NCBI GenBank assembly: GCA_900317375.1
Contig: ONGJ01000025.1
Span: 1 to 32,000, forward strand
Direction of reading: 5' to 3'
From: an uncultured Eubacteriales bacterium
GTDB taxonomy: Bacteria; Bacillota; Clostridia; Oscillospirales; Oscillospiraceae
DNA: 32,000 bases
Below the pieces are notes generated by a model that was given only the letters and a program-made list of their open reading frames with translations, did not search any database and was not told the origin of the DNA. This document shows positions 6,987 to 21,040 of this stretch, in pieces. Position 1 is the stretch's first letter. Each line of letters opens with the position of its first letter. The translations under genes were made by a program, and so were the position numbers.

Positions 6987-7015
6987 TTGACAAATTCCGG
7001 TATTGGGACTATACT
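6987..7015 (+). promoter_or_regulatory. consensus-like promoter of tRNA-Pro
   Basis: TTGACA (6987-6992), 17 nt spacer, TATACT (7010-7015), about 22 nt upstream of the tRNA. Confidence 0.55.
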
Positions 7016-7037: not shown

Positions 7038-7113
7038 CCGGGTGTAGCGCAGATGGTAGCGCGCTTGAATGGGGTTCAAGAGGCCGCTGGTTCAAATCCA
7101 GTCACTCGGACCA
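7038..7113 (+). tRNA. tRNA-Pro (anticodon GGG)
   Basis: Hand-folded cloverleaf. Acceptor CCGGGTG/CACTCGG (one G-U pair), D stem GCGC/GCGC, anticodon stem CTTGA/TCAAG with loop ATGGGGT. T arm GCTGG-TTCAAAT-CCAGT, discriminator A, encoded CCA. Confidence 0.85.
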
Positions 7114-7155
7114 AAACGCTGAAATCGTTGGTGATTTCAGCGTTTTCTTTTTATT
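7069..7155 (+). repeat. attL: 87-bp direct repeat (tRNA-Pro anticodon loop to 3' end plus terminator)
   Basis: Identical over 87 nt to 19387-19473 by manual alignment. Confidence 0.85.
7116..7152 (+). terminator. rho-independent terminator of tRNA-Pro (inside the att repeat)
   Basis: ACGCTGAAATC-GTTGGT-GATTTCAGCGT followed by TTTCTTTTT. It is duplicated at 19434-19470. Confidence 0.6.
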
Positions 7156-7171
7156 TTTTGGACTTTTCAGG

Positions 7172-7369: not shown

Positions 7370-8293
7370 GCGTCTGTAAAGGAACAATTCAAGAGTTTCC
7401 TTATAGCAAAGAAGGCAAAAGGGCTTGCTGATAAGACTTTGGCTACTTACGAGCAACATCTTTCAGCGATTGGAAAACATCTTGATTTAATGACAAGCGT
7501 CGAAAATCTAAATACGAACGATTTGGAATCTATGGTTAGTTCCATGCGAGACGATGGGCTTTCTCCTAACACTATCAAAAGTTACACAAACACACTCAAA
7601 TCTTTTTTCTCCTGGTGCAATGAAGAAGGTATCACAAATTTAACAATCACTCGCTATAAAGCAGAAGAGACTGTAAAAGAAACATATACTGACAGCGAAT
7701 TGGAGATTTTGCTGAAAAAGCCAAATCTCCGCAAATGCAAGTTCTCCGAATATCGTAATTGGGTCATTATCTGCCTTTTGGTGAATAACGGTTGTCGCGC
7801 TGCATCTGTCCGTAATATCAAAATAAAGGACTTGGACCTTGAGGGACGAATTATTTATCTTCGGCACACTAAGAATAAGAAAACACAGATTATTCCTCTA
7901 TGTGATACTCTATGCGTAACATTAAAGGAATATCTGCGTATCCGAAACGGTGAAGCTGACGATTATCTGTTCCCAAATGAGTTTGGAGAGCAGCTTTCAG
8001 AAAATGGCCTGCGCTGCACCATAGCCAAGTATAACAAGAAGCGCGGCGTTCAGAAAACTAGTCTCCATATGTTCAGGCACACCTTTGCTAGAAAGTATCT
8101 TGTGGATTGTGGAGGAAATGCTTTTACGCTTCAACATTTACTTGGCCATTCAACCCTTGATATGACAAAGCATTACTGTGCCATTTTTGACGCTGATATC
8201 TCCAAGAATTTTGAAAACTACTCCCCTCTGGCACAAATACAGAATAATAAAAGTAAGATTTCTATGAAATGCAAAAAAACGAGAACAGTATGA
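7334..8293 (+). CDS. tyrosine-type site-specific integrase (phage integrase family)
   Basis: GTG start 8 nt after GGAGGA. SAM-like N-terminal domain. C-terminal catalytic motifs ...LHMFRHTFARKYL...LLGHSTLDMTKHY. TGA stop. Confidence 0.9.
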   Translation: MSNRKRILVNSSASVKEQFKSFLIAKKAKGLADKTLATYEQHLSAIGKHLDLMTSVENLNTNDLESMVSSMRDDGLSPNTIKSYTNTLKSFFSWCNEEGITNLTITRYKAEETVKETYTDSELEILLKKPNLRKCKFSEYRNWVIICLLVNNGCRAASVRNIKIKDLDLEGRIIYLRHTKNKKTQIIPLCDTLCVTLKEYLRIRNGEADDYLFPNEFGEQLSENGLRCTIAKYNKKRGVQKTSLHMFRHTFARKYLVDCGGNAFTLQHLLGHSTLDMTKHYCAIFDADISKNFENYSPLAQIQNNKSKISMKCKKTRTV

Positions 8294-8375
8294 AACATCT
8301 TTCAGCATCTTTTGAATATCTTTGAACATAACAGAACATCTTTTAGCATCTTTCCATCATTTTTGAACATCTCTA
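8294..8375 (+). repeat. array of about 8 degenerate 10-11-bp repeats (GAACATCTTT / AGCATCTTTT), cluster 1; includes the 23-bp direct repeat 8294-8316
   Basis: Units start at roughly 8294, 8304, 8314, 8324, 8334, 8345, 8356 and 8365. AACATCTTTCAGCATCTTTTGAA recurs at 12521-12543. Confidence 0.55.
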
Positions 8376-9019
8376 AAGAAAACAAAAACCGCTCTGAACA
8401 TTTCCTGAAGCATTTTTAAATCCAGGAGACAGTCAGAGCGGTTGTTTATGAGGCAATGAGATGAAATGTGTATTTTCAAAACTCTTGAGCGGAAGTGAAA
8501 ACAGCGAAGCAGCCAGACTTTCAGCGCGACGACAGGTTATTTTTCTTCCTCGTCTTCGTTATCGTTTTGTATTCAATGGGACAAAAGGAAATCTCAGGAA
8601 ATAGGAATAAAAGTGAAGTCGTGGTCGTATGCGAAATCATCAGCAGTGCTTCCTGCCTTTCCAAATATAACAAGTTCCTGTATATCACCAAAAGCATTAC
8701 TATCAATCGTGGTTGTTTCATTTGGAATGTAGATATACCTGAGATTGGGACAGTTAGCAAATGCAAAAGGTCCGACATACTCTGTCTGCTCCGAAAGCTT
8801 CACATAGCGAAATGCTCCACCAGAAAAAGCGTCTTCACTTAATATCTTCAAGGATGCTGGCAAAAAAATGTCAGGAGTTGGAGTAATCAATGTGACACCT
8901 TTGTCAAATTCAATAATTGTAGTAGAACTAGTAATGATGGTTCCAGGTTCTTTGTAGCGAACAATTGACCCCGAAATTTCTGGCTGTGTGTTATGGACAA
9001 GTGCAAATAGCTTTGGGCA

Positions 9020-9800
9020 ATTACTAATGTCCAAGGTTTCAATATTATTAGAAAAACAGTATAACCGTCGCAGGAAGGTACAAAAACTGACATCTAGGCT
9101 TGTCAATTGATTTTCAACACAGGATAAAGAAGTCAGTGCACTATTATTGTTAATATTTAAAACTGTCAACTGATTATAATCACAGACTAATGAAGTTAGT
9201 GCAGTGTTGTTGCTGACATCTAGGCTTGTCAGTTGATTTTCCATACAATCCAGAGAGTTCAGAACAGTGTTATTGCTGACATCTAGGCTTGTCAGCTGAT
9301 TGTTATAACAATTCAGAGAAGTTAGTGCAGTGTTATTGCTGACATTCAGGCTTGTCAGTGGATTTTGTTATTGCTGACATTCAGGCTTGTCAGTGGATTT
9401 GAAGAACAATTAAGAGCCGTCAGTGCGGTGTTATTGCTGACATCTAAGCTTGTAAGTTGATTTCCAAAACAATCCAAGGAAGTCAGCACAGTATTGTTCC
9501 CGACATCTAGGTTTGTAAGTTGGTTGCTAGAACAATCCAAGGAAGTCAGCGCAGTATTATTCCTGACATCTAATCTTGTCAGTTGGTTATTAGGACAATA
9601 CAGAGAAATCAAAGCAGTGTTGTTGCTTACATCTAATCTTGTCAGCTGGTTCCTTGTACAATACAGGGCAGTCAAAGCAGTATTGTTGCTTACGTCTAAT
9701 CTTGTCAGTTGATTACCATAGCAATATAGAGAGGTCAGTGCAGTATTGTTGCTTACATCTAATCTTGTCAGCTGATTATTTCCACAAGATAAATTAGTTA
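9020..9800 (-). repeat. 66-bp in-frame tandem repeats encoding the LRR units
   Basis: Repeated ...GTTATTGCTGACATCTAGGCTTGTCAG... units are visible on the + strand. The period matches the 22-aa LRR. Confidence 0.8.
9331..9400. repeat. perfect 35-bp tandem duplication (9331-9365 = 9366-9400) causing the LRR frameshift
   Basis: TGTTATTGCTGACATTCAGGCTTGTCAGTGGATTT occurs twice back to back. 35 nt is not a multiple of 3, and a TGA follows immediately in the shifted frame. Confidence 0.9.
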
Positions 9801-10104
9801 ATGATGTAAAAAACTCGATTCCTTTAAGAGACGATAATCCACTTTTATTTAGGGAAATACTCCTGCTTCTAGAGATTTCAGTTTCACTCAGTTTTCCATT
9901 ACCGTCTCTGTCACAGTTCACTGACACATAATTACGGAAAACACTATCAGGGAAATTTGTCTCATTGATGTCAACATCATCAGCGAAAGCAGTGGGCGTA
10001 AGAATGAAAATGAATACCAGGCAAAACGACAATAGAACAAAAGGCAATGATTTCTTCATAATAAGACACCTCTGTTTTTGTTCTTAAAAATATCGATTTT
10101 TCAT

Positions 10105-10133
10105 ATTATACCAGATATATTAGCGTGATTCAA
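10105..10133 (-). promoter_or_regulatory. near-consensus promoter of the LRR gene
   Basis: Minus strand reads TTGAAT, 17 nt spacer, TGG-TATAAT (extended -10). Confidence 0.55.
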
Positions 10134-10153
10134 GACCAGATAACACACACTGG

Positions 10154-10717
10154 TTAAAGCAATTCTGCGTGCCCTTCTATCGCTTTTTCTATTCTCTGTG
10201 GTTCAATTCCAATGTAACGCTGTGTAATGGCTGCGCTGCTGTGCTGTAAGAGTCTCTGAACAAGGGCAATGTCATAACCTTTTTTTTGGTAAATCTCTGT
10301 GGCATACCACTTCCTGAATGAATGTGTGCTGATTCCAGAATAGCCAAGGTATTCACAGACATGGGCTAGCTGTTTCTGAATGGCTCTTGTAGTAACAGGG
10401 AACAACAGCGCGTCACGCGCAATGCCGTTCCGCAGACAGTAATTTTCCATATATTGATAGATAACAAGGGGAACAGTGAAAACACGCTGTTTTCCTGTTT
10501 TCTGCTCAGTGATGGAAAGGCGATAGCGCCCACCATCGCTGACAATATCGCAGAGGCGCAGTCTGACAATATCGCTGATTCTGATCCCAAGGTTTCCTTC
10601 CAGCACAAGGGCTGTTGCTATGCGCTCATTGGGACGAAAGCCAATGCCCCCTTCCTTCATTGTCGTGATAATCTCCCTGTATTGTTCAGTGGTCAGGGCT
10701 GTCGTTTTCTTGTTCAT
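10154..10717 (-). CDS. small tyrosine recombinase (catalytic domain only, about 187 aa)
   Basis: ...ISTHSFRKWYATEIY...LLQHSSAAITQRYIG catalytic motifs. GGAGGA lies 6 nt before ATG 10717 (the ORF track starts at 10753). TAA stop. Confidence 0.8.
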   Translation of the reverse strand: MNKKTTALTTEQYREIITTMKEGGIGFRPNERIATALVLEGNLGIRISDIVRLRLCDIVSDGGRYRLSITEQKTGKQRVFTVPLVIYQYMENYCLRNGIARDALLFPVTTRAIQKQLAHVCEYLGYSGISTHSFRKWYATEIYQKKGYDIALVQRLLQHSSAAITQRYIGIEPQRIEKAIEGHAELL

Positions 10718-10844
10718 AGCATCCTCCAAAAGAAAAGAAAGTTCGTTTTTCAAGAAGGGAAAAGTTCATAAAATGCGTTCGTTTTGAAATATTCCCCTTT
10801 CCTATTGCCTTCTGGTGTTCGTATTTGCAGTCTTTTACGAACAT

Positions 10845-11495
10845 CTACGCTGCAATCACTAGTTGTTCGTTGCAATCCAGGCAGGCGATGTTCACAGCCT
10901 TTGTAGCGCGAACGCTCATACCGCAGCAAGGGCAGATGTATTTCCTTGTGCTGGAAGGTTTACGGCCTGCTGTCCCTGTAAAGGTCCCTGCGTGCGTTCC
11001 ACTGACACCAACGGCAATGCTCATCAAATCGTTTCTGTTCAGCCTGATTTCTGTCAGATTGTTCTCTACGCAGAATTCCAAGAGAGAATCAGAAGGAGAA
11101 GTAATGGACCAGCCATAGGAGCTGTGATGCTCTACGACCAAATCACAGGCTTCGGCAGCTGCCTTGAAGTTTTTATTGTGGTAGGTGTTCCCCCTGCTGC
11201 AATCCTTCACGCCGTTCTTATCGTTCCAGTAATGAACCATTTCGTGAAGAAGGGTAGCTACCACGCATTCAATAGGTCTGGACAGCGTGCCTGCGCCGAT
11301 GTTGATTTCCCGCATTCCCTGCTCGCCGTCAACGCTCCAAGCATCAAACAGGGTGTAATGGCCGTAAGCTTTGGGCGTGCTCTGAATCGTGATGACAGGC
11401 CTTGAAAGTGTATTTTCAAAGTATCTGGCATTCAGCAGGTCAAAGATGGTGTTCAGATAGGCAGCTGCTCTGTTGTAGGTGGTAAGCTGTTTCAT
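10845..11495 (-). CDS. SprT-like zinc-metalloprotease domain protein with C-terminal Cys4 zinc ribbon
   Basis: HEMVH motif in an SprT-like context (TLLHEMVHYWN). C-terminal CPCCG...CLDC. It ends in a TAG that behaves as a genuine stop. Confidence 0.7.
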   Translation of the reverse strand: MKQLTTYNRAAAYLNTIFDLLNARYFENTLSRPVITIQSTPKAYGHYTLFDAWSVDGEQGMREINIGAGTLSRPIECVVATLLHEMVHYWNDKNGVKDCSRGNTYHNKNFKAAAEACDLVVEHHSSYGWSITSPSDSLLEFCVENNLTEIRLNRNDLMSIAVGVSGTHAGTFTGTAGRKPSSTRKYICPCCGMSVRATKAVNIACLDCNEQLVIAA

Positions 11496-11558
11496 TTCCT
11501 TTTCTCCCTTCTTTTGGCTGGGGCAGGTTTTGTGTTCCTGCCCCCCTCTCTGTTCATC

Positions 11559-11834
11559 TCACGCGATGGAGAACCGTTTGGAAGCACTCTGCTTGATGAA
11601 GGACTTGTAAACATCAGGCATTGCCTTCTTGAAGCTCGTGGTGTCAAAACGCTGGGTCAGGACGCTGGTCCAACGGATGATGTACTGTCCACATTCCAGC
11701 TCTTCAGTGTCGCGTTCCAGCATCTCCTGCTTGATGGAATCACGAAGGGCTTCGGCTTCAGCTCTGGCTTCTTCCATCAGCTTTTCCCAGCTGTTCAGCT
11801 CCTCAATCTTGTTCAGCAGTTCGTTGTTAGCCAT
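11559..11834 (-). CDS. hypothetical coiled-coil protein (about 91 aa)
   Basis: MANNELLNKIEELNSWEKLMEEARAEAEALRDSIKQEM... An A/G-rich RBS precedes ATG 11834. TGA stop. Confidence 0.55.
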   Translation of the reverse strand: MANNELLNKIEELNSWEKLMEEARAEAEALRDSIKQEMLERDTEELECGQYIIRWTSVLTQRFDTTSFKKAMPDVYKSFIKQSASKRFSIA

Positions 11835-11975
11835 TGTCTTTCTTTCCTTTCTTCTTTTGGATTTGGGAGTGGCCTCGCCGAGAATGTACATGCTGCATAT
11901 CGTTCGCGTCACTCGTATGTCTGAGGCCGTTGTAAGTTTTTAAGCTCGCTCCCTTTCTTGATTGTGTCTACATTA

Positions 11976-12074
11976 TAGCACTAAAATCTCGTGCTGTCTA
12001 TTCGCAAAAGCACTAAATTTTGGTGTTGTTTAGCACTGGTTTTTAGTGCATTTTGTACACTTGATTTTAGTGCT
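11976..12074. promoter_or_regulatory. operator-like array of the GCACTAAA / TTTAGTGC motif between divergent genes
   Basis: TAGCACTAAAAT (11976-11987), AGCACTAAATT (12009-12019), palindrome TAGCACT-N7-AGTGCA (12031-12050). ATTTTAGTGCT (12064-12074) is the exact inverse of the first copy and overlaps the -35. Confidence 0.45.
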
Positions 12075-12089
12075 TTCTTGTGCTATACT
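12061..12089 (+). promoter_or_regulatory. promoter of the XRE-family gene
   Basis: TTGATT (12061-12066), 17 nt spacer, TATACT (12084-12089). Confidence 0.5.
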
Positions 12090-12118
12090 GTGTATGGTGG
12101 AAAAGGAGGCTCTTTTTT

Positions 12119-12352
12119 ATGGCGATACGTTATAAGATAGACATAATGGCTGCATTGAAAGAAAAGGGGTATCCATCTACAAGAATACGAGATGAAAAGC
12201 TGATAGGGCAGTCATATCTACAACAAATCAGGCATGGCGAACTTGTATCATGGAAAACCATAGACACTATCTGTAAACTGCTGGAATGCCAGCCAGGGGA
12301 CATAATAGAATATATTTCTGATGATGCAGCCCCCCCTCCCCCTGCTGAATAA
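12119..12352 (+). CDS. XRE/Cro-type helix-turn-helix transcriptional regulator (77 aa)
   Basis: MAIRYKIDIMAALKEKGYPSTRIRDEKLIGQSYLQQIRHGELVSWKTIDTICKLLECQPGDIIEY. AAGGAGG lies 10 nt before ATG 12119. Confidence 0.75.
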   Translation: MAIRYKIDIMAALKEKGYPSTRIRDEKLIGQSYLQQIRHGELVSWKTIDTICKLLECQPGDIIEYISDDAAPPPPAE

Positions 12353-12469
12353 GGCTTCTCTGTTGCGCTGCTGGTAGGCTGGGGCACGGTTTTCAGGAAG
12401 ATATAAATCTCATTCCCCTTTTTCCTATATATATGGCCTGACAAATTTCCAAAAGCCAAAACAAATCAG

Positions 12470-12547
12470 AACACGATTGAACATCCCTGAACGTGTCAGC
12501 GTGTGAACTGAACGTCTTTTAACATCTTTCAGCATCTTTTGAACATC
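12470..12547 (+). repeat. GAACAT/GAACGT decamer array, cluster 2; includes the direct repeat 12521-12543
   Basis: CAGAACACG, TTGAACATCC, CTGAACGTG, CTGAACGTCTTTT, then AACATCTTTCAGCATCTTTTGAACATC. Confidence 0.5.
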
Positions 12548-12555
12548 ACGGAAAG

Positions 12556-12597
12556 AAAAAGAAAAAACGGAGAATAACGATAAACGCTATCCTCCGT
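12556..12597 (-). terminator. strand-specific rho-independent terminator ending the minus-strand small-gene operon
   Basis: Minus strand reads ACGGAGGATAGCG-TTTAT-CGTTATTCTCCGT followed by TTTTTTCTTTTTCTTT. The two G-U pairs exist only in the minus-strand RNA. Confidence 0.6.
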
Positions 12598-12602
12598 CAG
12601 GG

Positions 12603-12791
12603 TTACCATTCCCATTCTTCTATCTCATCCCAGTCAATGCTTCTGTCGTTCAAATCAATATAATGCCAGCCTAGCCATTCATCAAAGAAATAATTCATCA
12701 TCTGACTGGTGACTTCCTTCATCACGTTATAAAGGAATTCTTCAATCCAGGACTATTCTCGTTTCTTTTTCTTTTTCTCTTCGTCTGTCAT
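12603..12791 (-). CDS. hypothetical small acidic protein, 62 codons with one in-frame TAG (codon 13)
   Basis: AAGAGG lies 7 nt before ATG 12791. Translation MTDEEKKKKKRE[TAG]SWIEEFLYNVMKEVTSQMMNYFFDEWLGWHYIDLNDRSIDWDEIEEWEW, TAA stop. TAG at 12753-12755. Confidence 0.4.
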
Positions 12792-12802
12792 TGCTTAGCC
12801 TC

Positions 12803-12988
12803 TTACTGGTTATAATGATTGCGCAGATGCCTTTCCAGTATCTCTCTGTCTTTTGGACTCTCTTCAGCCCAAAGAATCTGATAGGGTTTGACATCTTCCT
12901 GAAGATGAACGAAATGGTCATAGTAGAGAACTGGTCCCTCTGTCAGCTAATCCAGAACGCTGCTCTTATGTTTCTATATTGGATTCAT
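12803..12988 (-). CDS. hypothetical small protein, 61 codons with two in-frame TAG
   Basis: The AGGTGA RBS overlaps the upstream TGA stop. Translation MNPI[TAG]KHKSSVLD[TAG]LTEGPVLYYDHFVHLQEDVKPYQILWAEESPKDREILERHLRNHYNQ, TAA stop. TAGs at 12974-12976 and 12947-12949. No alternative start after the TAGs. Confidence 0.35.
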
Positions 12989-12997
12989 ATTCTTTTT

Positions 12998-13357
12998 TCA
13001 CCTACTTCGTCTTTTTTTTATTTTTTCGCAATACGCTCTATAGTTGTCTTGCTAGCTCAAGAAACGCAAATTGCTGGCTTTGTTATTGCTGACATCACCG
13101 TCAATGTGGTCCACTGTGTTCTTGTGCTATGGATCATCGTTATCACAGAACGCCGCAGCCACTAAACGACTGACAAGAAAATGTCTGCTTACTCCGTTAT
13201 GGGACAAACAGACACGGTAATATCCTTTATTATTAGGGAACGCTGTCAGAATCTTTTCTTTCTTGTGTTTCAGGGATTTGATTCTGCCAAGGGAACTAAC
13301 ATAGTATTTTTCATAACCGTCTATCGGTTTCCAGATTTCTTTTTCTATTGGAATCAT
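12998..13357 (-). CDS. NUMOD4 + HNH (HNH_3-type) homing-endonuclease-like protein, frame intact but with two in-frame TAG
   Basis: MIPIEKEIWKPIDGYEKYYVSSLGRIKS...GYYRVCLSHNGVSRHFLVSRLVAAAFCDNDDP[TAG]HKNTVDHIDGDVSNNKASNLRFLS[TAG]QDNYRAYCEKIKKRRSR, TGA stop. The ORF track reports only the first 76 aa. TAGs at 13127-13129 and 13052-13054. Confidence 0.7.
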
Positions 13358-13445
13358 CTCCTTTTCTATTGTTTGAGAAATAGGAAAGAAGAATTAAACA
13401 AGTTTGACAAGAAGCAGAGTACAAAAAAAGAGAGGATTTGTAATT

Positions 13446-13925
13446 ATGAAGGCAAAAGCGATCGCAAAAGAATACGGTTTTGACCCAGACAGATTTCAGT
13501 CTTTTGTTTGGCGTCAATCAGAAATCCCAACAAAAGGATTTAGTGGAGATTCTATTGATGATGCAGATATACCCAAGATGGTAGAACTGTATAAAAAAAC
13601 AGAGGGGGAAGTTCATCGAATTGAAGAAATAAAAGAAAAAGACCTTCAATCGGCTTTGCCAAGAATAAAGTATACAAGTATCATTAACTCCTTTGTCAGT
13701 GTAGAAGGTGTAGGAGCGTATACAAACTATGTTTACTACAGTGTTTTGATCGTCTTTGATGATGGAACAGCTAAAATCGTAGAAGGAAACAGCGACACAA
13801 TTGCTCCTCTGCTGGTTTATTTACGCACTCCTGTAGATGAAATGAAAGAAATAAAACAGATTATCGCGCATTTGTCTTCTGATATTAATACTATCAAAGG
13901 GGTGTTAGATGAGAAGATAAAATAA
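13446..13925 (+). CDS. hypothetical protein (159 aa), the only plus-strand gene in this part of the island
   Basis: AGAGAGGA RBS before ATG 13446 (the ORF track starts at 13404). TAA stop. No family recognised. Confidence 0.55.
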   Translation: MKAKAIAKEYGFDPDRFQSFVWRQSEIPTKGFSGDSIDDADIPKMVELYKKTEGEVHRIEEIKEKDLQSALPRIKYTSIINSFVSVEGVGAYTNYVYYSVLIVFDDGTAKIVEGNSDTIAPLLVYLRTPVDEMKEIKQIIAHLSSDINTIKGVLDEKIK

Positions 13926-14055
13926 TGCTGATGTGAAGTCTTTGGGACCTTTTAAGAGATGATACAATTATAAAGGTTCATTTGTGATAATTCTGGATCT
14001 ATCGATTTCCATGATGAAAACAGATTGGATCGTTCATAATGCCCATATAAGATTT

Positions 14056-14100
14056 GATCCTCAAGGTCTTCTATTTAATGGAAAACCTTGAGGATCTTTT
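14056..14100 (+). terminator. hairpin terminator between convergent genes
   Basis: GATCCTCAAGGT-N17-ACCTTGAGGATC followed by TTTT. Confidence 0.5.
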
Positions 14101-14509
14101 ATTCTGCACTTGCCAGAATTTCTTCCAGCGTTACTGTTAGCGCATGAGAGTTATAATCATACTTGCGCCAGTTAGATTCCTTTGGAATCTGTGTGTTCAG
14201 TGCTGGTAGATACTGCCTGATATAACGCCCTTCAGCTTCTCCTATTTCTTCTACTACATCGGAAAGCTTGGACGAAGTCGCATAGCAAACCACATCAAAC
14301 TGAACAGCGTGCCCCTTCTGTTTTGCTTCTGCCAGGATCTGATACTTGTGACTTTTCGGCTGTCGGAAAGCAAAGTAGTGTTCTGCCAGCCTCCACAGCA
14401 TATCTTTGCTCTTGCCTATGTATACAATTATCCCATCGATTGTAATCTTATATATACCAGCGTGCTGGAAGCGCGCTGCAAACCCTCTGCGCTATAGCAT
14501 CTTGTACAT
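14099..14509 (-). CDS. GIY-YIG nuclease domain protein with an in-frame TAG at codon 6
   Basis: MYKML[TAG]RRGFAARFQHAGIYKITIDGIIVYIGKSKDMLWRLAEH...EAEGRYIRQYLPALNTQ. GIY-N9-YIG, the conserved R, and E...N are all present. The ORF-track ATG (14401) lies after the YIG motif. TAG at 14492-14494. TAA stop. Confidence 0.7.
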
Positions 14510-14522
14510 ATTTTCTACGTAA

Positions 14523-15266
14523 TTAGCCAATTCTCTCTTCCTTTCCAGAAATATAACGTGTCAGTTCATACACTTCCGCAAGGCTGCCATTCAGATTCCA
14601 GGCTGTGAAGTGGAAAGTCTTGCAGGAGTAATAACAGCAATGGTCCCTGTCCCATAGAAAATTAACCACATTTTTCCATGCTTCACTTCTGGCCTCATCA
14701 TAGGAAAGCTTTCTGCTCCCCTTCATAATCTGCCAAGTGATTTCTTCTATTAGCGCTGAACGCTCTTTGAAATAGGTTTGCGCTTCTTCCTCTGTAACGA
14801 GCTGGCGCTTCTTGAATCCTGCTTCGTCAATGTAGGTTTTCCAGTAACTACCTTCGCTGCCCTTGCACATAATGCCCTGATCTATGAGTTTCTTGCACCA
14901 TCTGCTTAAAGTACGGCTTGTATAGAATCTGCCTGAGAACTTCCAATATTCCTCTTCGCGAACCTTCCATGGCATACAGTCAAAACCAGGAACATCATTA
15001 AACGCAGTGACGAAGCAGGCGAACGAGTACATATCAACCTGAATATCAACTTGGAACTGTCGGATCAGGATTTCCTGTAATCTTTCTTCTGGTAGATCAG
15101 GAACATGGGTAATTGCTACACCGTTGCGCATCCAGTCATATCCATAGCCCCACTTCGTCAGAACAGACTCTACATTTCTTTTAAAGTGTTTTACATCAGC
15201 TAAGCTCACGCTTGTGATTTCAGCAATTTCCTTGCGGCTATAGAACCGCATTTCTAACTATTTCAT
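14523..15266 (-). CDS. hypothetical protein with HTH-like segments (possible DNA-binding or replication function); possible in-frame TAG at codon 3
   Basis: 242-aa ORF from ATG 15251 has no RBS. GAAAGG lies 8 nt before ATG 15266, giving MK[TAG]LEMRFYSRKEIAEITSVSLADVKHFKRN... TAG at 15258-15260. TAA stop. Confidence 0.6.
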
Positions 15267-15343
15267 AATAAGAACCTTTCGAGTATCATAATACTTTTTA
15301 CAACTTTGATTTGATTTCTTTACAAGAATAAAGCAACTATAGA

Positions 15344-15421
15344 TTTTGAATATACACTTTCAATCCCCCCAAAGGTTTTCCAGATATACTTTTATAAATG
15401 TGAAATCCTTTGGAGGGGATT
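15344..15421 (-). promoter_or_regulatory. repeated intergenic cassette A: stem-loop (AATCCCCCCAAAGG/CCTTTGGAGGGGATT) plus palindromic promoter-like box TTGAAAGTGTATATTCAAAA
   Basis: The 34-nt stretch 15344-15377 is identical to 15761-15794. On the minus strand the hairpin is followed by TTGAAA, 16 nt spacer, TATAGT. Confidence 0.5.
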
Positions 15422-15426
15422 ATCAG

Positions 15427-15735
15427 TTAACCAATATATCCGTTATTCAGTACTGCTTTTGCATCTGAATAGAACTCCCAATAGGTTAAATCAAAAACCA
15501 ACCAAATGATATAATCATGAATAAGAATTGAAACATCATCATAATCGTTCATATCATATTCAATATTTACAGGATGGGCACACACGTAGTCTTTCATTTG
15601 AAGTAGTTCAGCATTAGTAAACTCATCGCAAAACTCTTCCCACTCCTTTTCGTTTCTATTAAGGATTTTTTGATTCTGGGAGATACTAAGGTCAAGATTT
15701 TCTTCGATTTTCTTTTCATCACAGACAACAATCAT
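15427..15735 (-). CDS. hypothetical acidic protein (102 aa)
   Basis: ORF with GAAAGGAA RBS and TAA stop. No family recognised. Confidence 0.55.
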   Translation of the reverse strand: MIVVCDEKKIEENLDLSISQNQKILNRNEKEWEEFCDEFTNAELLQMKDYVCAHPVNIEYDMNDYDDVSILIHDYIIWLVFDLTYWEFYSDAKAVLNNGYIG

Positions 15736-15760
15736 TTTATAATTCCTTTCAGATTATTAT

Positions 15761-15837
15761 TTTTGAATATACACTTTCAATCCCCCCAAAGGTTGTCCTT
15801 TCTAATCTATAATTGTCAGGAAAACGTTTGGGGGGAT
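15761..15837 (-). promoter_or_regulatory. repeated intergenic cassette B (stem-loop ATCCCCCCAAAGGTT/AACGTTTGGGGGGAT plus TTGAAAGTGTATATTCAAAA box)
   Basis: Same 34-nt core as cassette A. On the minus strand the box is followed by an ATAAT-type -10. Confidence 0.5.
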
Positions 15838-15845
15838 CTATACAA

Positions 15846-16070
15846 TTAGCAAGCTCTTGGATCAAGCCCCAGAGAATGACGAATGAATCTTGCTGGGATT
15901 ACTTTATGCATATTACATTCATCACAGCAACGACCTTCTTTCGTGATTGGAGCTGGATTATTGCCATATCCAATAAATGTAGTACCGCAGATACAGCATT
16001 TCTGCTTACGGTTGGGATAAGGATTAGTGACTGCGAGAATATAAGCTGGATTAATAAATTCATTTTTCAT
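15846..16070 (-). CDS. small Cys-rich zinc-ribbon protein (74 aa)
   Basis: CCICG...CCDEC cysteine pairs. AAGGAG RBS. TAA stop. Confidence 0.6.
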   Translation of the reverse strand: MKNEFINPAYILAVTNPYPNRKQKCCICGTTFIGYGNNPAPITKEGRCCDECNMHKVIPARFIRHSLGLDPRAC

Positions 16071-16110
16071 TTTAATAAACTCCTTATAATTATTATTTTT
16101 TTAATTTTTT

Positions 16111-16164
16111 CTCCAAAGGTTTTCATACTTATTCTATTACAGGAAAGGAAAACGTTTGGGGGGG
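16111..16164 (-). promoter_or_regulatory. repeated intergenic stem-loop C (CTCCAAAGGTTTTC/GAAAACGTTTGGGGGGG)
   Basis: Third copy of the CCAAAGG/CCTTTGG hairpin family, without the TTGAAAGTG box. Confidence 0.45.
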
Positions 16165-16167
16165 TTG

Positions 16168-16446
16168 TTATATAGCGTACAGGATTTCATATAACCTGCG
16201 TACTTCGGCATCCATTCTATCGTGGTATTCTGCTTCATACAGAAGGAACAGAATATAGTGGTAGATAATCTGTTCCCTGTAATCTGGCTGTGAAGGGTTG
16301 TACTTCTCTATGGGATAGTGGTTTTTTATCATCACTTGGCGCATCGCGCAGATTTCCTGATTGGTGATTGCGCATGCAAGACAATGAAAATTCTATTTGT
16401 CCCAAGACAAGATTTTTTGTTTACTTGATATCAGCAGAGAATTCAT
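16168..16446 (-). CDS. hypothetical protein, 92 codons with an in-frame TAG at codon 18
   Basis: Strong RBS AAGGGGGTGA before ATG 16446. Translation MNSLLISSKQKILSWDK[TAG]NFHCLACAITNQEICAMRQVMIKNHYPIEKYNPSQPDYREQIIYHYILFLLYEAEYHDRMDAEVRRLYEILYAI, TAA stop. TAG at 16393-16395. Alternative reading: a 17-aa leader plus an internal start at ATG 16344. Confidence 0.45.
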
Positions 16447-16579
16447 TTCACTGATTCACCCCCTTTCGTAGTTTTGTGTTATGCTGATTGCTTTTCTGTA
16501 GAATGCACGAATGAGAAAACAATCTTTGTTGCTTCCTTATTCGTTTTAGAAATTTGTTTTTCCCCTTTTTTCTATATAT

Positions 16580-16608
16580 ATTATAACAAATTTTTTATAA
16601 AAAGTCAA
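16580..16608 (-). promoter_or_regulatory. consensus promoter heading the TAG-containing gene block
   Basis: Minus strand reads TTGACT, 17 nt spacer, TATAAT, followed by a leader of about 125 nt before ATG 16446. Confidence 0.6.
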
Positions 16609-16649
16609 AAAATCGTCAAACAACGGCGATTTTTCGAACTTTTTAAGGG

Positions 16650-16684
16650 AAAAAGAAAAACTCTGTGGAAAAGGTCCACAGAGT
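16650..16684 (-). terminator. rho-independent terminator after the WYL-led genes
   Basis: Minus strand reads ACTCTGTGGA-CCTTT-TCCACAGAGT followed by TTTTTCTTTTT. Confidence 0.6.
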
Positions 16685-16713
16685 ATTATGCGCTATTCAT
16701 TTGTTCACCTGCT

Positions 16714-17199
16714 TTATGCAGTCTTTTTGTTTGCATTTTCCAGATAATCTGAAAAGCTAATCACATCAGGGAGCTTTTCAGTATCCAGATAGAACAGAGG
16801 CTCTTCTCTGAACTTAGGAAACTGAGCCATAAACCACTGAGCAACAGGCGCATAGGGTGAAAGGCATATTGCTTCGGCCTTTTCACGCAGTTTGTGATAC
16901 TCATCCAGATACTTCTGGCTGTTATCAAGCGCATTCATAAATCTCTCCATGCGCTCATAGGAAAGGTTTTTGGTAGGATAGTAGGAGGTTCTCTTACCAT
17001 CCTGCCCCTTCCCCTTGTAGGAAGTGGGTGAAGTGCGTGTGCGATTCACAATTTCCAGATTGGGAAAATCATGCAGGAACTGACGTACAAGTTTATATTC
17101 AGCAGATCCAGGGTTGTTGGCTGCATCAGCAAAAGCAGCAGTCAGAGTGAGAGTCTGGTGGGCCAGGTCCAGCTTATAGCCCTTCATTTTTGTAGCCAT
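16714..17199 (-). CDS. hypothetical protein (161 aa), weak N-terminal paralog of the upstream gene
   Basis: MATKMKGYKLDLAHQTLTLTAAFADAANN... GGGGG RBS before ATG 17199 (the track starts at 17214). TAA stop. Confidence 0.6.
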   Translation of the reverse strand: MATKMKGYKLDLAHQTLTLTAAFADAANNPGSAEYKLVRQFLHDFPNLEIVNRTRTSPTSYKGKGQDGKRTSYYPTKNLSYERMERFMNALDNSQKYLDEYHKLREKAEAICLSPYAPVAQWFMAQFPKFREEPLFYLDTEKLPDVISFSDYLENANKKTA

Positions 17200-17227
17200 T
17201 TTAAATACCCCCATTTATGTTTTTTGC

Positions 17228-17731
17228 TTAAAGATTCACAACAGGCTTGAGTTCATTCTCTTCGGCTTCGCCGATGACAGTATTATTATCTGTCGTAGGC
17301 TTAGCTTTAGCACAAGTTGCGCTGTTGAGCATCTGCTTATAGCGATAATCATCAACACAACTCTTGGCTTCAGCATAGTTGAAGCTTTTGTAAGCATCAA
17401 AAAGCACGCGCTTGACAAGTGGGTATTTGCTCTCACGCATCTTCCCAGCATAATCGATTACTTCATTCACTGTTTCCAGTGTGATGTAATCTTTGACTGC
17501 CGTAAGGTAGTCCACGATAAAGGGAATGTCCATCCCCTTATAGGTCTGCTTGGGCTTAGCAGGCTTCTCAGGCTGCTTGATTTCGATACCATAGGTAGGG
17601 TGCTTCTCCATCAAAGCGATGAGTTCGTCATAGACAGGGCCATAACCCTTGCTAGCTTTGTCAAAGCTGTTCTGGGTTCCGACGATGGTCTTGTTGGCAA
17701 AGTTAAGGGTAAAGCGTGCATTCTTAGACAT
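17228..17731 (-). CDS. hypothetical protein (167 aa)
   Basis: MSKNARFTLNFANKTIVGTQNSFDKASKGYG... GGAG lies 8 nt before ATG 17731 (the track starts at 17743). TAA stop. Confidence 0.6.
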   Translation of the reverse strand: MSKNARFTLNFANKTIVGTQNSFDKASKGYGPVYDELIALMEKHPTYGIEIKQPEKPAKPKQTYKGMDIPFIVDYLTAVKDYITLETVNEVIDYAGKMRESKYPLVKRVLFDAYKSFNYAEAKSCVDDYRYKQMLNSATCAKAKPTTDNNTVIGEAEENELKPVVNL

Positions 17732-17910
17732 ATTAGTCTCCATTCTCTGTTTTTCTGAGTTTATCAGCTCTCATTTTTTTATTCTTGGAAGGGGTTTTCT
17801 TTTCTTTGTTTCCCCCTCCTCTTTACAATTATATTTTACCAGATTTGAAAAATATTACAATATGTTCAGGCGTTTCAGCAGTACATAAGCGGCCTTCTGA
17901 CTTTATTCTA

Positions 17911-17942
17911 AAACAATTATAGCAGGGCTAAAAACCCTGCTA
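17911..17942 (-). terminator. hairpin after the WYL gene (possible attenuator)
   Basis: Minus strand reads TAGCAGGG-TTTTTAG-CCCTGCTA followed by TAATTGTTTT. Confidence 0.4.
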
Positions 17943-17955
17943 TTTCTTGTGATTT

Positions 17956-18990
17956 TTACTGATAATGCGCTTCTATTCTTTTGATGTAGTCTTTGAATCT
18001 CCCTGCTGTTTCTGGTGGGTCTACAATGACTATTTTTTCACCTAGACCACATACCCAACCATAGAAGTTTTCGCTTTCCACGATGAATGTTTTGATGCTG
18101 AAATGCTTGTCATCTATTGGAGTGTATACTGTGTCAGGTCCTTTGGGAAAGCGTTCCAGCATTGCATCCAATAGGGAGTTTTCAAATTGAAGAGTAATAC
18201 GTCCTGCTTTGCCACCGATGAACATTCCAAAAGTCTGTTTCGCATAATCGCTAATCCCCAACCGTTTGAACTTTTCTTCCCCTTCTCTTGGCTCATCCGT
18301 AATCTTTACATCATCCATCCTGTCTATTCTGTATGCCCTGATTTGGTGGTAGGTATCATCATAGCCTATCAGGTAGTGGTTTCCATCTGAAAGGACAACA
18401 TTGAAAGGGCTGACAACATACCGTTTTCCTTTCCTGCGGTTTTCCGTTTGAGTGATATTCACTGGACTATGGCGAGTATAGAGAAAAGATATTTTCTGAT
18501 TATTTCTTATAGCGAGTTTTATTCTACGAAGGTATTTTAACATCTTCCTTTCCGTGTATTTCGGTCGTTCTGCTACGATGTACTCGCTTTTCAGGGTGTC
18601 TGCTTGATACTTGCTACACAGTTTTTTAAGTTTTTCAATAAGTTCTTCTGCTTCTGGTCGTGATATGAAATTAGCGGAGGCGACACATTCTGCTATCGTT
18701 TCCAAGTCTTCAAATGGCAGAAAGCGAGTGCCCAAATAGATAGGCTTGCCTTTTCCCCCTTGGACATCCAACACAGCGTCAAACGCTGCGTCTCTTCCTC
18801 CACGCAAAAGGTCAATGTCTCTGCGGATAGAATGATTTTCTGCTTCAATTCCTTTGCTATTCAGGTATTGCTCTACATCCTTTAACAGAACGCCGTGAAG
18901 CATATTGCCTTTTTCATCGGCGTCAGTTTCTCGCATAAGATAATCGGCGATGTAAAAGATTTTCAGTTTCTGACGGTCGCTCTTTGGCAT
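17956..18990 (-). CDS. WYL-domain transcriptional regulator (wHTH-WYL-C-terminal extension, YafY/BrxR-like architecture)
   Basis: 344 aa. N-terminal HTH-like region. Central ...YVVSPFNVVLSDGNHYLIGYDDTYHQIRAYRIDRM... typical of WYL domains. GGGGGA RBS. TAA stop. Confidence 0.8.
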   Translation of the reverse strand: MPKSDRQKLKIFYIADYLMRETDADEKGNMLHGVLLKDVEQYLNSKGIEAENHSIRRDIDLLRGGRDAAFDAVLDVQGGKGKPIYLGTRFLPFEDLETIAECVASANFISRPEAEELIEKLKKLCSKYQADTLKSEYIVAERPKYTERKMLKYLRRIKLAIRNNQKISFLYTRHSPVNITQTENRRKGKRYVVSPFNVVLSDGNHYLIGYDDTYHQIRAYRIDRMDDVKITDEPREGEEKFKRLGISDYAKQTFGMFIGGKAGRITLQFENSLLDAMLERFPKGPDTVYTPIDDKHFSIKTFIVESENFYGWVCGLGEKIVIVDPPETAGRFKDYIKRIEAHYQ

Positions 18991-19019
18991 TGTGTCGTAT
19001 CCCCCTGTTTTCAGAGATT

Positions 19020-19115
19020 TTGAAAAGATTATAACAGATGTTCCAGACGCAAGGCAAGATGTTCAACAATGCTGGCACGATGATAAAAGATGCTGGAAAG
19101 ATGTTCAATGATGTT
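19020..19115 (-). repeat. GAACATC/AGCATCTTTT array, cluster 3 (inverted relative to clusters 1 and 2), overlapping the WYL-gene promoter
   Basis: Minus strand reads CCGAACATCATTGAACATCTTTCCAGCATCTTTT...AGCATTGTTGAACATCTTGCCTTGCGTCTGGAACATCTGTTATAAT. TTGCCT, 18 nt spacer, TATAAT, with a GAACATC box inside the spacer. Confidence 0.5.
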
Positions 19116-19120
19116 CGGTT

Positions 19121-19140
19121 TTGAAAGTGTATATTCAAAA
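19121..19140 (+). promoter_or_regulatory. third copy of the palindromic box TTGAAAGTGTATATTCAAAA, here on the plus strand facing attR
   Basis: Exact reverse complement of the first 20 nt of the cassette core at 15344 and 15761. Confidence 0.45.
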
Positions 19141-19386
19141 AACAACCATTCGTTTTCTGATAAAAAAACGAACAGAGAAAGTCCCTGTTCGTTGGTAAAG
19201 ACAGCGTTATCTATGGAAAGTTCGTATTTGTATGGCTGAAAGTTCCATTATTGGATACTTTTTGTTAACATTATAGGCATTATCTTGAATAAAAGTGCTG
19301 CCCTGATATAATGGAAATACAGAAGTCAAGTGTTTCCTGATTGTGGTGATTTCAGCGACGGGGTTGCGCCAGTGGTTAGACGGTTG

Positions 19387-19473
19387 ATGGGGTTCAAGAG
19401 GCCGCTGGTTCAAATCCAGTCACTCGGACCAAAACGCTGAAATCGTTGGTGATTTCAGCGTTTTCTTTTTATT
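19387..19473 (+). repeat. attR: 87-bp direct repeat (partial tRNA-Pro 3' half plus terminator)
   Basis: Identical to 7069-7155. It is preceded (about 19355-19386) by a degenerate tRNA 5'-half-like sequence that cannot form an acceptor stem. Confidence 0.85.
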
Positions 19474-19600
19474 CTCTTCTGAAAAGCAGCACGCTTGAAT
19501 TTTCTACTTGAAGGGAGATTCAAGCGTGCTGTTTTTTTGTAAAGTTATGCTTGATTTTATTATACTTTTCGGTATAATAAAACGGAAGGATGTGATTTGC

Positions 19601-20998: not shown

Positions 20999-21040
20999 GC
21001 CGGCACGCGAACGCATTGCAGGCGTACATAGTCCAGCCCA

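Follow-up and report, generated by a model that had tools for sequence, protein, structure and literature searches.

The locus described here raises the question of whether ribosomes read TAG as sense in a cluster of genes that it interrupts. The window, a 32,000-nucleotide stretch of contig ONGJ01000025.1 from an uncultured Oscillospiraceae bacterium, was described in an initial annotation as carrying eight in-frame TAGs across six consecutive minus-strand genes, nested in an outer element and forming a candidate recoding or suppression module. All eight codons are indeed in frame at the sites listed in Table 1, and the six gene models lack TAA, TGA and frameshifts. However, the genes are not consecutive, as two TAG-free genes and one opposite-strand gene are interspersed among them, and relatives show the same gene order, so there is no nesting. 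The recoding part of the proposal is supported below, but the suppression part is not, because genes for a suppressor tRNA, a release factor and a synthetase are all absent from the block.

The TAG-bearing genes are located within a 12.3 kb integrative island (7069-19473) of a rumen/gut Oscillospiraceae genome, and its insertion point is precisely at a tRNA-Pro gene. The sequence to the right of the island matches the empty-site junction of sister genomes (9 contigs of the same species), and thus filled and empty sites both exist within one species. Related islands (9-10 kb) occupy other integration sites and carry repeats of their own, and at least eight loci, 9-12 kb in size, repeat the same virion-less architecture with differing integrases and integration sites. 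These comparisons show the island to be mobile. No virion, lysis, packaging or terminase genes were found in it, and none of its proteins matches packaging or capsid-redirection families. The island copies L001, L002 and L107, which come from independent assemblies, exhibit 99.7-100% identity and carry the same TAGs.

Table 1. Coordinates of the island features within the window, with in-frame TAG codons indicated.
Feature	Position	Strand	Remarks
tRNA-Pro(GGG)	7038..7113		3' end within attL
attL	7069..7155	+	Left copy of 87-nt perfect direct repeat; covers tRNA-Pro(GGG) 3' end and terminator hairpin
Tyrosine integrase, 319 aa	7334..8293	+	Pfam Phage_integrase; standard code; no in-frame TAG; TGA stop
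Leucine-rich-repeat (LRR) cargo gene	8594..10059	-	63-nt tandem repeats; two ORFs here
Short tyrosine recombinase, 187 aa	10154..10717	-	Standard code; 82-84% conservation across islands
SprT-like zinc metalloprotease gene	10845..11495	-	No internal TAG; terminates with TAG
91-aa conserved gene	11559..11834	-	Standard code; p117 when counted with upstream extension
XRE/HTH_26 regulator, 77 aa	12119..12352	+	Standard code
Intrinsic-terminator-like hairpin	12566..12598	-	Closes operon
62-aa acidic protein (p62) gene	12603..12791	-	TAG codon 13 (12753-55)
61-aa protein (p61) gene	12803..12988	-	TAG codons 5 and 14 (12974-76, 12947-49)
NUMOD4 + HNH_3 endonuclease, 119 aa	12998..13357	-	TAG codons 77 and 102 (13127-29, 13052-54)
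159-aa gene	13446..13925	+	Opposite strand within operon; no TAG; confined to this island lineage
GIY-YIG endonuclease	14099..14530	-	TAG 14492-94
p247, 247 aa, tandem winged-helix domains	14523..15266	-	TAG codon 3 (15258-60)
102-aa gene	15427..15735	-	No TAG; 3 Gln codons
74-aa Cys-rich gene	15846..16070	-	No TAG; 1 Gln codon
92-aa protein gene	16168..16446	-	Good ribosome-binding site; TAG codon 18 (16393-95)
Predicted sigma-70 promoter, near-consensus	16580..16608	-	TTGACT, 17 nt, TG-TATAAT; 11/12 positions; heads operon
Two paralogous genes, 166 and 171 aa	16714..17743	-	Standard code; no function assigned
WYL-domain transcription regulator, 344 aa	17956..18990	-	Standard code
attR	19387..19473	+	Right copy of 87-nt repeat

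A predicted promoter and terminator delimit the TAG genes as one transcription unit, which occupies the centre of the island on the minus strand (~16608 to ~12566). All eight of its genes terminate with TAA or TGA. In the HNH nuclease, the Pfam match to NUMOD4 (residues 7-52) lies upstream of both TAGs, and that to HNH_3 (residues 81-105) lies past the first TAG and spans the second. The TAG of the GIY-YIG gene is codon 13 when counted from TTG 14530 and codon 6 when counted from ATG 14509; the former is probably the start codon, given the conservation of the N-terminus among relatives. The GIY...YIG catalytic motif follows this TAG and precedes the first start codon available under translation table 11, and therefore can be accessed only by TAG read-through. 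Thus, the nuclease motifs flank or follow the TAGs as originally annotated. The sole distant homolog of the 92-aa protein (L005) can be aligned across the TAG column. The 102-aa gene has too few Gln codons for its lack of TAG to be informative either way.

The evidence that TAG is a sense codon comes from approximately 25 divergent related loci, with homologs at 35-92% identity. In these loci, the in-frame stops of the p247, GIY-YIG and HNH genes comprise 63 TAG, 0 TAA and 0 TGA, and the count for all operon-gene families across relatives is 67 TAG, 0 TAA and 0 TGA, with no frameshifts. At conserved glutamine columns, CAA/CAG and TAG interchange between relatives, as in column 3 of p247 (Gln in 15 sequences, TAG in eight) and column 108 of GIY (Gln in 11, TAG in one). 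Values of dN/dS between the window and L008 are 0.09 for p247 and 0.17 for GIY-YIG, indicating that the TAG-bearing genes are under ongoing purifying selection, and the GIY-YIG TAG is kept at a dS of ~0.4. Of the tests proposed for the claim that TAG is read as sense, all those feasible here were passed: extra TAGs but no other lesions occur elsewhere in relatives, Pfam domains and alignments continue through the TAG columns, and TAG is swapped with CAA/CAG. Nor are the TAGs sequencing errors, as the independent assemblies show. Plain nonsense mutation (pseudogene decay) or sequencing or assembly error is effectively refuted, for although CAA/CAG stands at the window TAGs of p62 and p61 in their close relatives, as recent C-to-T changes would yield, the TAGs of the operon families are unaccompanied by other lesions, are retained across a dS of ~0.4 under purifying selection and are identical in independent assemblies, and the bases preceding them show no deaminase-like context.

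These comparisons support a table-15-type reading of the operon block, in which TAG is translated as sense, and they show TAG behaving as a selected codon that aligns with glutamine. The amino acid inserted is probably Gln. The only invariant TAG-containing columns are the two named above, and both are invariant Gln (for p247 codon 3, in 15 of 15 non-TAG sequences of a unique set from related loci). The p62 site is occupied by Gln in the six closest homologs and in relatives at 94-97% identity, whereas codon 5 of p61 corresponds to Q or T and codon 14 to Q in all three homologs. Several variable columns have TAG opposite K, E, S, L or F instead of Q, which counts against the Gln reading. If TAG specified pyrrolysine or another non-Gln amino acid, this might explain why Lys dominates GIY columns 7 and 14 and p247 column 71 in relatives, and why a BLOSUM profile puts K slightly over Q. 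However, genuine Gln columns of the same alignments have an equal E/K/Q profile, the window contains no pyl genes, and a related phage clade, that of Topaz, has been described as using TAG for Gln (bioRxiv 10.1101/2021.08.26.457843), all of which makes such a reading highly improbable. Pyrrolysine systems in Firmicutes and archaea do resemble the island in having in-frame UAG within functional genes while UAG is otherwise a stop, but the island has neither a pyl operon nor a methyltransferase context, and its TAG columns match conserved Gln.

Comparison also shows two gene classes in one element, with a code-15 operon on the one hand and standard-code integration and regulatory genes on the other. 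In the window, operon genes have 8 TAG versus 29 CAA/CAG, and other island genes have 0 versus 67 (Fisher p = 1.5e-4). Across relatives, the operon class has 67 TAG versus 292 CAA/CAG, and the integration/regulatory class has 0 versus 292 (Fisher p = 4e-19). Of the two tests, the one across relatives is by far the stronger. The standard-code class consists of the integrase, WYL, XRE, 166/171-aa pair, 91-aa, SprT-like and short recombinase genes. TAG is never internal to the integrase, WYL, XRE, SprT-like or short-recombinase genes, nor to the 166/171-aa paralogs, which form tandem repeats in relatives. TAG does serve this class as a terminator, in the position where orthologs have their stop. 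It had been proposed that none of 13 outer genes ends in TAG, but this does not hold for the SprT-like gene, whose TAG is located where its orthologs have TAA or TGA, and at least four of ten distinct XRE/HTH_26 ortholog sequences likewise terminate with TAG. The complete exclusion of TAG from the interiors of this class implies that in this cell TAG ordinarily functions as a stop.

Recoding itself is already known from Topaz prophages, which reside at tRNA genes in Oscillospiraceae and have TAG-free integrases, and it has been proposed that recoding allows such an element to sense co-infecting phages (Borges et al., bioRxiv 10.1101/2021.08.26.457843). The p247/GIY-YIG(/HNH) module and the integrase of the island are homologous to those of ~22-kb TAG-recoded Topaz-like temperate siphophages from the same host family, with integrase identity of up to 52%. 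Furthermore, p247 is present in 5 of 14 recoded TerL loci versus 1 of 53 non-recoded loci, and it is the hallmark gene common to the island and these phages. One Topaz-like phage contig, L029 (22.6 kb, of which 13.4 kb was read), has 1-8 in-frame TAGs in 17 of its 20 called genes, including those for terminase, portal and Mu-F, and its p247 homolog is located upstream of terS. The island and these phages share an Oscillospiraceae host, tRNA-adjacent integration, low GC relative to the host, a TAG-free integrase, TAG as Gln elsewhere, and recoded genes without TAG terminators. In contrast, the island is smaller (12.3 kb versus 22 +/- 3 kb), lacks terminase, portal, capsid, tail and lysis genes, and carries additional WYL, 166/171-aa, XRE, 91-aa, SprT-like and short recombinase genes. 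The recoded portion of the island is a small operon for nucleases and DNA-binding or small proteins, whereas that of Topaz is a structural and lysis module. The Topaz clade is defined by TerL, which the island lacks, and therefore the island cannot be placed in it. The island and Topaz-like phages were not found to resemble each other at the DNA level, for example through a common cos or pac site, which counts against a helper link.

The island might instead be what is left of a TAG-recoded prophage that has become defective, its TAGs being historical sense codons and its operon now neither expressed nor useful. The missing virion, lysis and terminase genes and the phage origin of the shared genes are consistent with this, as is the LRR cargo gene, which is frame-disrupted in the window copy but intact (476 aa) in L001. 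We nevertheless consider a remnant improbable, given the recurrence of the same layout with different integrases and sites, the perfect att repeats, the coexistence of filled and empty sites, the dN/dS values, and the fact that no gene of the family carries frameshift, TAA or TGA lesions.

A possible, if unlikely, alternative is that decoding is provided by the host through amber read-through, either constitutive or stress-induced, such that the island is autonomous and needs no helper phage. Candidate agents include a host suppressor or near-cognate tRNA-Gln, or a weak RF1. In the island, ARAGORN and Rfam detect only the att tRNA-Pro, and no suppressor tRNA was detected in 46 Topaz-like loci (all scanned with ARAGORN, seven also with Rfam), which favours host decoding and counts against the helper proposal. 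The TAG-bearing genes of L029 include the first genes of the lytic operon, and this spread suggests that the phage lacks a standard-code 'switch' gene. In addition, no host gene examined ends in TAG (0 of 19 in L108, 0 of 9 in L033 and 0 of 3 in L031, a small sample), and therefore the host's own handling of TAG may be unusual. However, standard-class genes of the island end in TAG at exactly the sites where orthologs have TAA or TGA, and constitutive read-through would extend their proteins by 5 to >75 residues; these genes also have no TAG at all in their interiors.

The explanation we favour, with moderate confidence, is that a code-15 operon is carried by a satellite-like island and is translated conditionally with the aid of a helper code-15 phage. 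Because the island has neither virus-particle genes nor a suppressor tRNA, the operon is probably translatable only once the code has been switched by some other factor in the cell. Ribosomes in an ordinary cell would halt at the TAGs, most of which are within the first 3-18 codons, and the nucleases and small proteins would remain unmade; p247 might be produced at a low level at best, by re-initiation at Met6. Among the TAGs of the family, 40% are within the first 10% of the protein, a statistic that ignores shared ancestry. In an amber-decoding cell, the whole operon would become translatable, and the likeliest source of such a state would be a code-15 phage, either co-resident or infecting.

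Large code-15 phages (crAss-like, Lak, Agate and others) similarly read TAG as Gln and divide their genes into standard-code and recoded sets, a split that is thought to time expression. They differ from the island in encoding a suppressor tRNA(CUA) themselves, in some cases along with RF2 or a synthetase, in infecting mainly Bacteroidota, and in having 10-40 times larger genomes. Phage satellites (PICI/SaPI, P4-like, PLE and cfPICI) resemble the island in being integrative elements with an integrase, att repeats, their own regulators and cargo, no full virion set, genes akin to one phage lineage and, plausibly, helper-triggered expression; the shared size range is 9-12 kb. However, the hallmark primase-replicase, terS, capsid-size redirection, AlpA and Stl-type repressor were not found in the island, nor was a shared packaging site detected. 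Helper dependence via the genetic code, as proposed here, is described for no satellite family in the literature searched.

The initial annotation knew of no description of such recoding for a small tRNA-integrated island without structural genes. TAG-recoded prophages at tRNA genes were already described, but the small virion-less context seemingly was not, as no description of such an island was found in the literature searched. The apparent novelty is thus a family of islands, 9-12 kb long, that lack virion genes and a suppressor tRNA and use TAG both ways. Which phage acts as helper, and whether the island is packaged, are matters of speculation. Under the helper proposal, the TAGs would serve as a translational lock that couples a phage-derived module to its helper in the manner of a satellite, and the island is plausibly a hitchhiker on recoded phages.

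The eight in-frame TAG codons of the operon lie exactly where the initial annotation placed them, in six minus-strand gene models with no TAA, TGA or frameshift; the count for the window is 8 TAG, 0 TAA and 0 TGA in 900 codons. These six genes are co-directional as described, but they are not consecutive, since two TAG-free genes and one gene on the opposite strand intervene. Six of the TAGs occupy codons 3, 5, 13, 13, 14 and 18, and the other two are codons 77 and 102 of a 119-amino acid NUMOD4/HNH_3 nuclease. All eight operon genes stop with TAA or TGA. The domain motifs are arranged around the TAGs as had been suggested: in the nuclease, the Pfam domain NUMOD4 (residues 7-52) is upstream of both TAGs, while HNH_3 (residues 81-105) follows the first and extends across the second. 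In the GIY-YIG protein, the catalytic GIY...YIG is located downstream of the TAG and upstream of the first table-11 start codon. The start of this gene is probably a TTG codon, because the N-terminus is conserved among relatives. The same TAGs are present in three independent assemblies of the island (L001, L002 and L107; 99.7-100% identical) and therefore are not sequencing errors. The island is present in rumen or gut samples such as the sources of ERZ919325 and ERZ27280476. Coding density estimated by naive ORF tiling does not distinguish between TAG, TAA and TGA as the sense codon.

About 30 related loci were collected with a profile built from the many homologs of p247, the 242/247-amino acid protein of the operon. 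The profile was required, as single-sequence pattern scans of viral and genome collections returned no match; blastn of the block against phage and plasmid collections likewise returned none. Within the tblastn alignments of the p247, GIY-YIG and HNH families, all in-frame stops are TAG and they are distributed over more than 20 different columns, with 63 TAG, 0 TAA and 0 TGA among non-redundant sequences. When all operon-gene families are pooled, there are 67 TAG, 0 TAA and one TGA. This single TGA resides in the 5′ extension of 'p117' (a model of the 91-amino acid gene with an upstream extension), 5′ of the start assigned in L001.

The positions of TAG in one sequence correspond to glutamine in others. 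Column 3 of p247 is Gln in 15 sequences and TAG in eight, and column 108 of the GIY-YIG family is Gln in 11 and TAG in one. Codon 13 of p62, a 62-amino acid operon protein, is TAG in the window and Gln in the six closest homologs, and homologs at 94-97% identity have Gln there. In homologs of the 61-amino acid protein p61, codon 5 encodes Q or T and codon 14 encodes Q (3/3). In variable columns TAG is found opposite K, E, S or Q, and true Gln residues of the same alignments give the same neighbour profile. Furthermore, comparison of the window with the related locus L008 yields dN/dS values of 0.09 for p247 and 0.17 for GIY-YIG, and the GIY TAG is common to both loci across a dS of ~0.4. We consider it very probable, from this comparative evidence, that TAG is a selected sense codon in the block, as the initial annotation had proposed.

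The amino acid inserted is most probably Gln. Pyrrolysine or Lys would formally still fit the substitution profile, but columns in which TAG alternates with otherwise invariant Gln speak against both, and pyrrolysine is further disfavoured by the lack of pylTSBCD genes or a Pyl-dependent enzyme context within the 32-kb window. Gln at UAG has been approached at the protein level by metaproteomics (PMC9523058), and putative TAG-spanning peptides under this assignment are MKQLEMR, DNDDPQHK, FLSQQDNYR and EQSWIEEFLYNVMK. Random decay, sequencing error and deaminase-type damage are excluded by the TAG-only stops, the Gln columns and the selection, given that lesions are not mixed with TAA, TGA or indels, that dN/dS is 0.09-0.17, and that the bases preceding the TAGs have no consistent context.

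The remaining genes of the island form a second class. Among the relatives, the integrase, short recombinase, SprT-like, XRE, WYL and 166-amino acid families contain 0 in-frame TAG versus 292 CAA/CAG codons, whereas the operon class contains 67 TAG versus 292 CAA/CAG (Fisher p = 4e-19). The window alone gives 8 versus 29 for the operon and 0 versus 67 for the other island genes (Fisher p = 1.5e-4). Moreover, genes of the standard-code class use TAG as terminator exactly where their orthologs carry TAA or TGA. This is the case for the SprT-like gene in the window and in related loci L003 and L031, for the XRE gene in at least four of 10 distinct orthologs, and for the short recombinase in L031 and L010. 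The earlier statement that genes outside the block never end in TAG is thus wrong for the SprT-like gene. Nor is the block an element nested within an outer one, as relatives keep the same gene order; the 22-nucleotide repeats considered as ends of such an element resemble promoter/leader copies and were rejected. As judged from these alignments, TAG is both a stop and a sense codon inside one 12-kb element, split by gene class, which points to two translational states and not to constitutive read-through.

Of the TAGs in the recoded families, 40% are located in the first 10% of the protein; common ancestry accounts for TAGs shared between related sequences, so that these counts are not independent observations. 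In the window, with six of the eight TAGs at codons 3-18, the placement is that expected of an early translational lock. Among called genes of the host flanks (window 1-7000 and 19500-32000, L108, L031 and L033) none ends in TAG, with 0/19 in L108, 0/9 in L033 and 0/3 in L031. This may be chance at a small sample size, or TAG stops may be depleted in the hosts that carry these elements. Host stop usage derived by naive ORF tiling is unreliable because antisense shadow ORFs are picked in high-GC DNA.

The island has a GC content of 38-49%, compared with 55-68% for its flanks, and the flanking host proteins carry the name Oscillospiraceae bacterium in rumen/gut MAG records. There are nine contigs that encode an identical neighbouring host protein and that carry araA, tRNA-Pro and an ATPase gene but lack the island, and the junction in these contigs is the same as the attR flank of the window. 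The insertion is therefore precise and polymorphic, which implies recent mobility. Pattern matches to a near-consensus promoter and an intrinsic terminator exactly enclose the TAG-bearing genes (see table). Eight or more loci, which differ in integrase and integration site, have the same architecture. Recurring genes are the 166-amino acid paralogs, p247, GIY-YIG and/or HNH, XRE (on the opposite strand), the 91-amino acid gene, the SprT-like gene, the short recombinase, cargo genes, WYL and the integrase. Island sizes delimited by direct repeats are 9.2 kb (L015), 10.3 kb (L003, located in the 3′ end of a GAPDH-like gene), about 9.0 kb (L024) and 12.3 kb (window). Searches with Pfam and PHROGs revealed no terminase, portal, capsid, tail or lysis/lysin genes in the island, and the precomputed Pfam tables of L001, L031 and L033 list no virion, lysis or terminase genes. 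ARAGORN and Rfam searches for a suppressor tRNA(CUA) or code-change genes found only the att tRNA-Pro in the island, and the related islands likewise have no suppressor tRNA.

Features of the island and their coordinates in the window
Feature	Position	Strand	Remarks
Direct repeats (island ends)	7069-7155; 19387-19473		Perfect, 87 nt; 3′ end of tRNA-Pro(GGG)
Operon promoter	16608-16580	minus	
TAG-bearing gene models	16446-12603	minus	
p247 gene	14523-15266	minus	
GIY-YIG start codon (probable)	14530	minus	TTG
Hairpin	14056-14096		20-bp near-perfect inverted repeat
159-aa gene	13446-13925	plus	Function unassigned
Operon terminator	12598-12566	minus	
SprT-like gene	10845-11495		L001 copy at 13757-14377
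Short tyrosine recombinase gene	10154-10717		187 aa
LRR cargo gene	8594-10059		63-nt tandem repeats; L001 copy at 15163-16593
Iteron-like cluster	8279-8388		After integrase
Iteron-like cluster	12462-12564		Just beyond operon terminator
Iteron-like cluster	19057-19123		Upstream of WYL, opposite orientation
Palindrome	15344-15381; 15761-15798; 15816-15837; 16146-16163; 19121-19141; 11402-11420; 8465-8480		
22-nt repeat	12413-12434	minus	Beyond operon terminator, pointing into XRE antisense
22-nt repeat	16560-16581	minus	Directly after -10 box of operon promoter

Several individual genes show peculiarities. The SprT-like gene differs from its L001 copy by one indel of ~30 nucleotides (216 versus 206 amino acids), and the copies are otherwise identical. 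Read-through of its TAG would add 53 residues and extend the protein into the beginning of the recombinase gene. The LRR cargo gene is split into two ORFs by a 35-nucleotide difference from L001, where the gene is intact (476 amino acids) and otherwise identical; the split is either a true frameshift or a repeat-assembly artefact. The short tyrosine recombinase is 82-84% identical across the islands compared (window, L003, L010, L022-24 and L031), whereas other genes are only 40-60% identical. Partial second copies of its 3′ end occur in L022/L024 (as a direct repeat 9.0 kb away) and L031 (inverted), and this 3′ end may be an attachment site. The 159-amino acid gene on the opposite strand within the operon is found only in this island lineage, adjoins the tabulated hairpin and looks like a later insertion.

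There are also three classes of repeated sequence. Iteron-like repeats (GATGTTCAA / TTGAACATC) are present as 5-7 copies per cluster at a spacing of ~10-11 nucleotides, and these clusters may be an origin or binding sites for a recombinase or regulator. The palindrome TTGAAAGTGTATATTCAA is located in the intergenic spacers of the TAG operon, where it is preceded by a C-rich hairpin (GATCCCCCCAAAGG...CCTTTGGGGGGAT), and also upstream of WYL. It has no Rfam match and looks like an operator or RNA element. The third class is the 22-nucleotide repeat ATATATATAG[A/G]AAAAAGGGGAA.

Related recoded genes are also found in phages. Locus L029 comprises 13.4 kb of a 22.6-kb phage contig, in which 17 of 20 called genes have 1-8 in-frame TAGs and stops are TAA or TGA only. 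Its gene order is integrase, repressor-like gene, small genes, p247 homolog, terS, endolysin-like peptidase, terL, portal, Mu-F and head genes. L029 matches the Topaz clade, whose TAG-recoded genomes of 22 ± 3 kb are Oscillospiraceae prophages at a tRNA gene with TAG-free integrases (Borges et al., bioRxiv 10.1101/2021.08.26.457843). A TerL scan of IMG/VR gave 67 loci with a full-length gene, 14 of them TAG-recoded, and p247, often followed by the GIY-YIG gene, is present in 5/14 recoded versus 1/53 non-recoded loci. One Topaz-like TerL locus (L090, among L034-L103) carries three in-frame TGA codons in TerL instead of TAG. The genetic code therefore varies inside this narrow clade of closely related TerL sequences.

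The island integrase is up to 52% identical to phage integrases, and the short recombinase has weak matches to them. By tblastn and phmmer, only the integrase, p247, GIY-YIG, HNH and a 74-amino acid gene are clearly common to island and phages, and at the nucleotide level the island showed no similarity to, and no segment in common with, Topaz-like phages. Like the Topaz clade, the island has an Oscillospiraceae host, a tRNA-Pro att site and a TAG-free integrase, but it lacks the clade-defining TerL as well as structural and lysis genes. It also resembles code-15 elements (TAG read as Gln) in that recoded genes have no TAG stops and integrase/lysogeny genes have no in-frame TAG. However, it has no suppressor tRNA(CUA) of its own, a feature that is common but not universal in such elements and is present in about 40% of TAG-recoded genomes (Borges et al., bioRxiv 10.1101/2021.08.26.457843). 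Finally, the island shares small size (relatives are 9.0-10.3 kb), an integrase, att sites and an incomplete virion set with phage satellites (PICI, P4-like, PLE and cfPICI), but Pfam and PHROGs give no match for a primase/replicase, terS/capsid redirection, AlpA or a master repressor.

The predicted structure of p247, a high-confidence model, has tandem winged-helix domains (pLDDT 91). Its sequence matches are exclusively uncharacterised viral proteins, and Foldseek returns only weak winged-helix matches in the PDB. We predict that p247 binds DNA and may initiate replication or act as a regulator. A role as code-switch factor was rejected, as p247 itself carries TAG and 9/14 recoded TerL loci have no homolog, even though for several of these the sequence was read for 5-10 kb ahead of terL.

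In a standard-code cell, the operon products would be truncated early, perhaps with re-initiation of p247 at Met6, 12 nucleotides past its TAG. Full expression would therefore need an amber-decoding state provided in trans. The most economical source would be a code-15 phage of a related clade in the same cell, in which case the island would be a hitchhiker that depends on a helper. It has been noted that an element could use recoding to detect co-infecting phages (Borges et al., bioRxiv 10.1101/2021.08.26.457843). We lean slightly towards this conditional-translation model as a whole.

A serious rival is that TAG is decoded by host-supplied or conditional read-through, because no suppressor tRNA is recognisable in 46 Topaz-like loci (ARAGORN; seven also with Rfam). 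A tRNA with anticodon UAU located mid-genome in three phage loci (L057, L059 and L060) proved to be an ordinary tRNA-Ile, and Rfam scans, which would reveal tRNA-like or ribozyme elements, were negative for the island and for seven Topaz-like loci. An extension of the conditional-translation model, which we regard as tentative and rather doubtful, is that the islands are an undescribed family of satellites of amber-recoded temperate phages. Integration and regulatory genes would then be kept in the standard code with TAG as stop, the phage-derived operon would be kept in code 15 with TAGs clustered at gene 5′ ends, and the island would take the genetic-code switch of the helper as its unlocking signal. 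If this is true, a 12-kb element uses one codon as terminator and as sensor.

TAG-to-Gln recoding is already known in prophages of standard-code Oscillospiraceae. We found nothing in the literature that describes it for a small tRNA-integrated island, in agreement with the initial annotation. Three points appear undescribed, and a literature search for them gave no match: a conserved small-island family with a code-15 operon and no virion genes or suppressor tRNA, the explicit use of TAG for both termination and sense in a single element of this kind, and code-based helper sensing as an implication. Databases contain truncated fragments (39, 42, 58, 76 and 100 amino acids) of the operon genes. 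Standard-code gene callers fragment the islands, and the family is therefore invisible to routine annotation. With eight TAGs and one operon, the island would be a compact natural system for asking what decodes TAG, a question that concerns many recoded phages without a recognisable suppressor tRNA. Descriptions of stop-codon recoding have so far treated it as a property of complete phage genomes, and its presence in a conserved family of small virion-less islands that lack a suppressor tRNA would mean that alternative coding structures helper-hitchhiker relations too.
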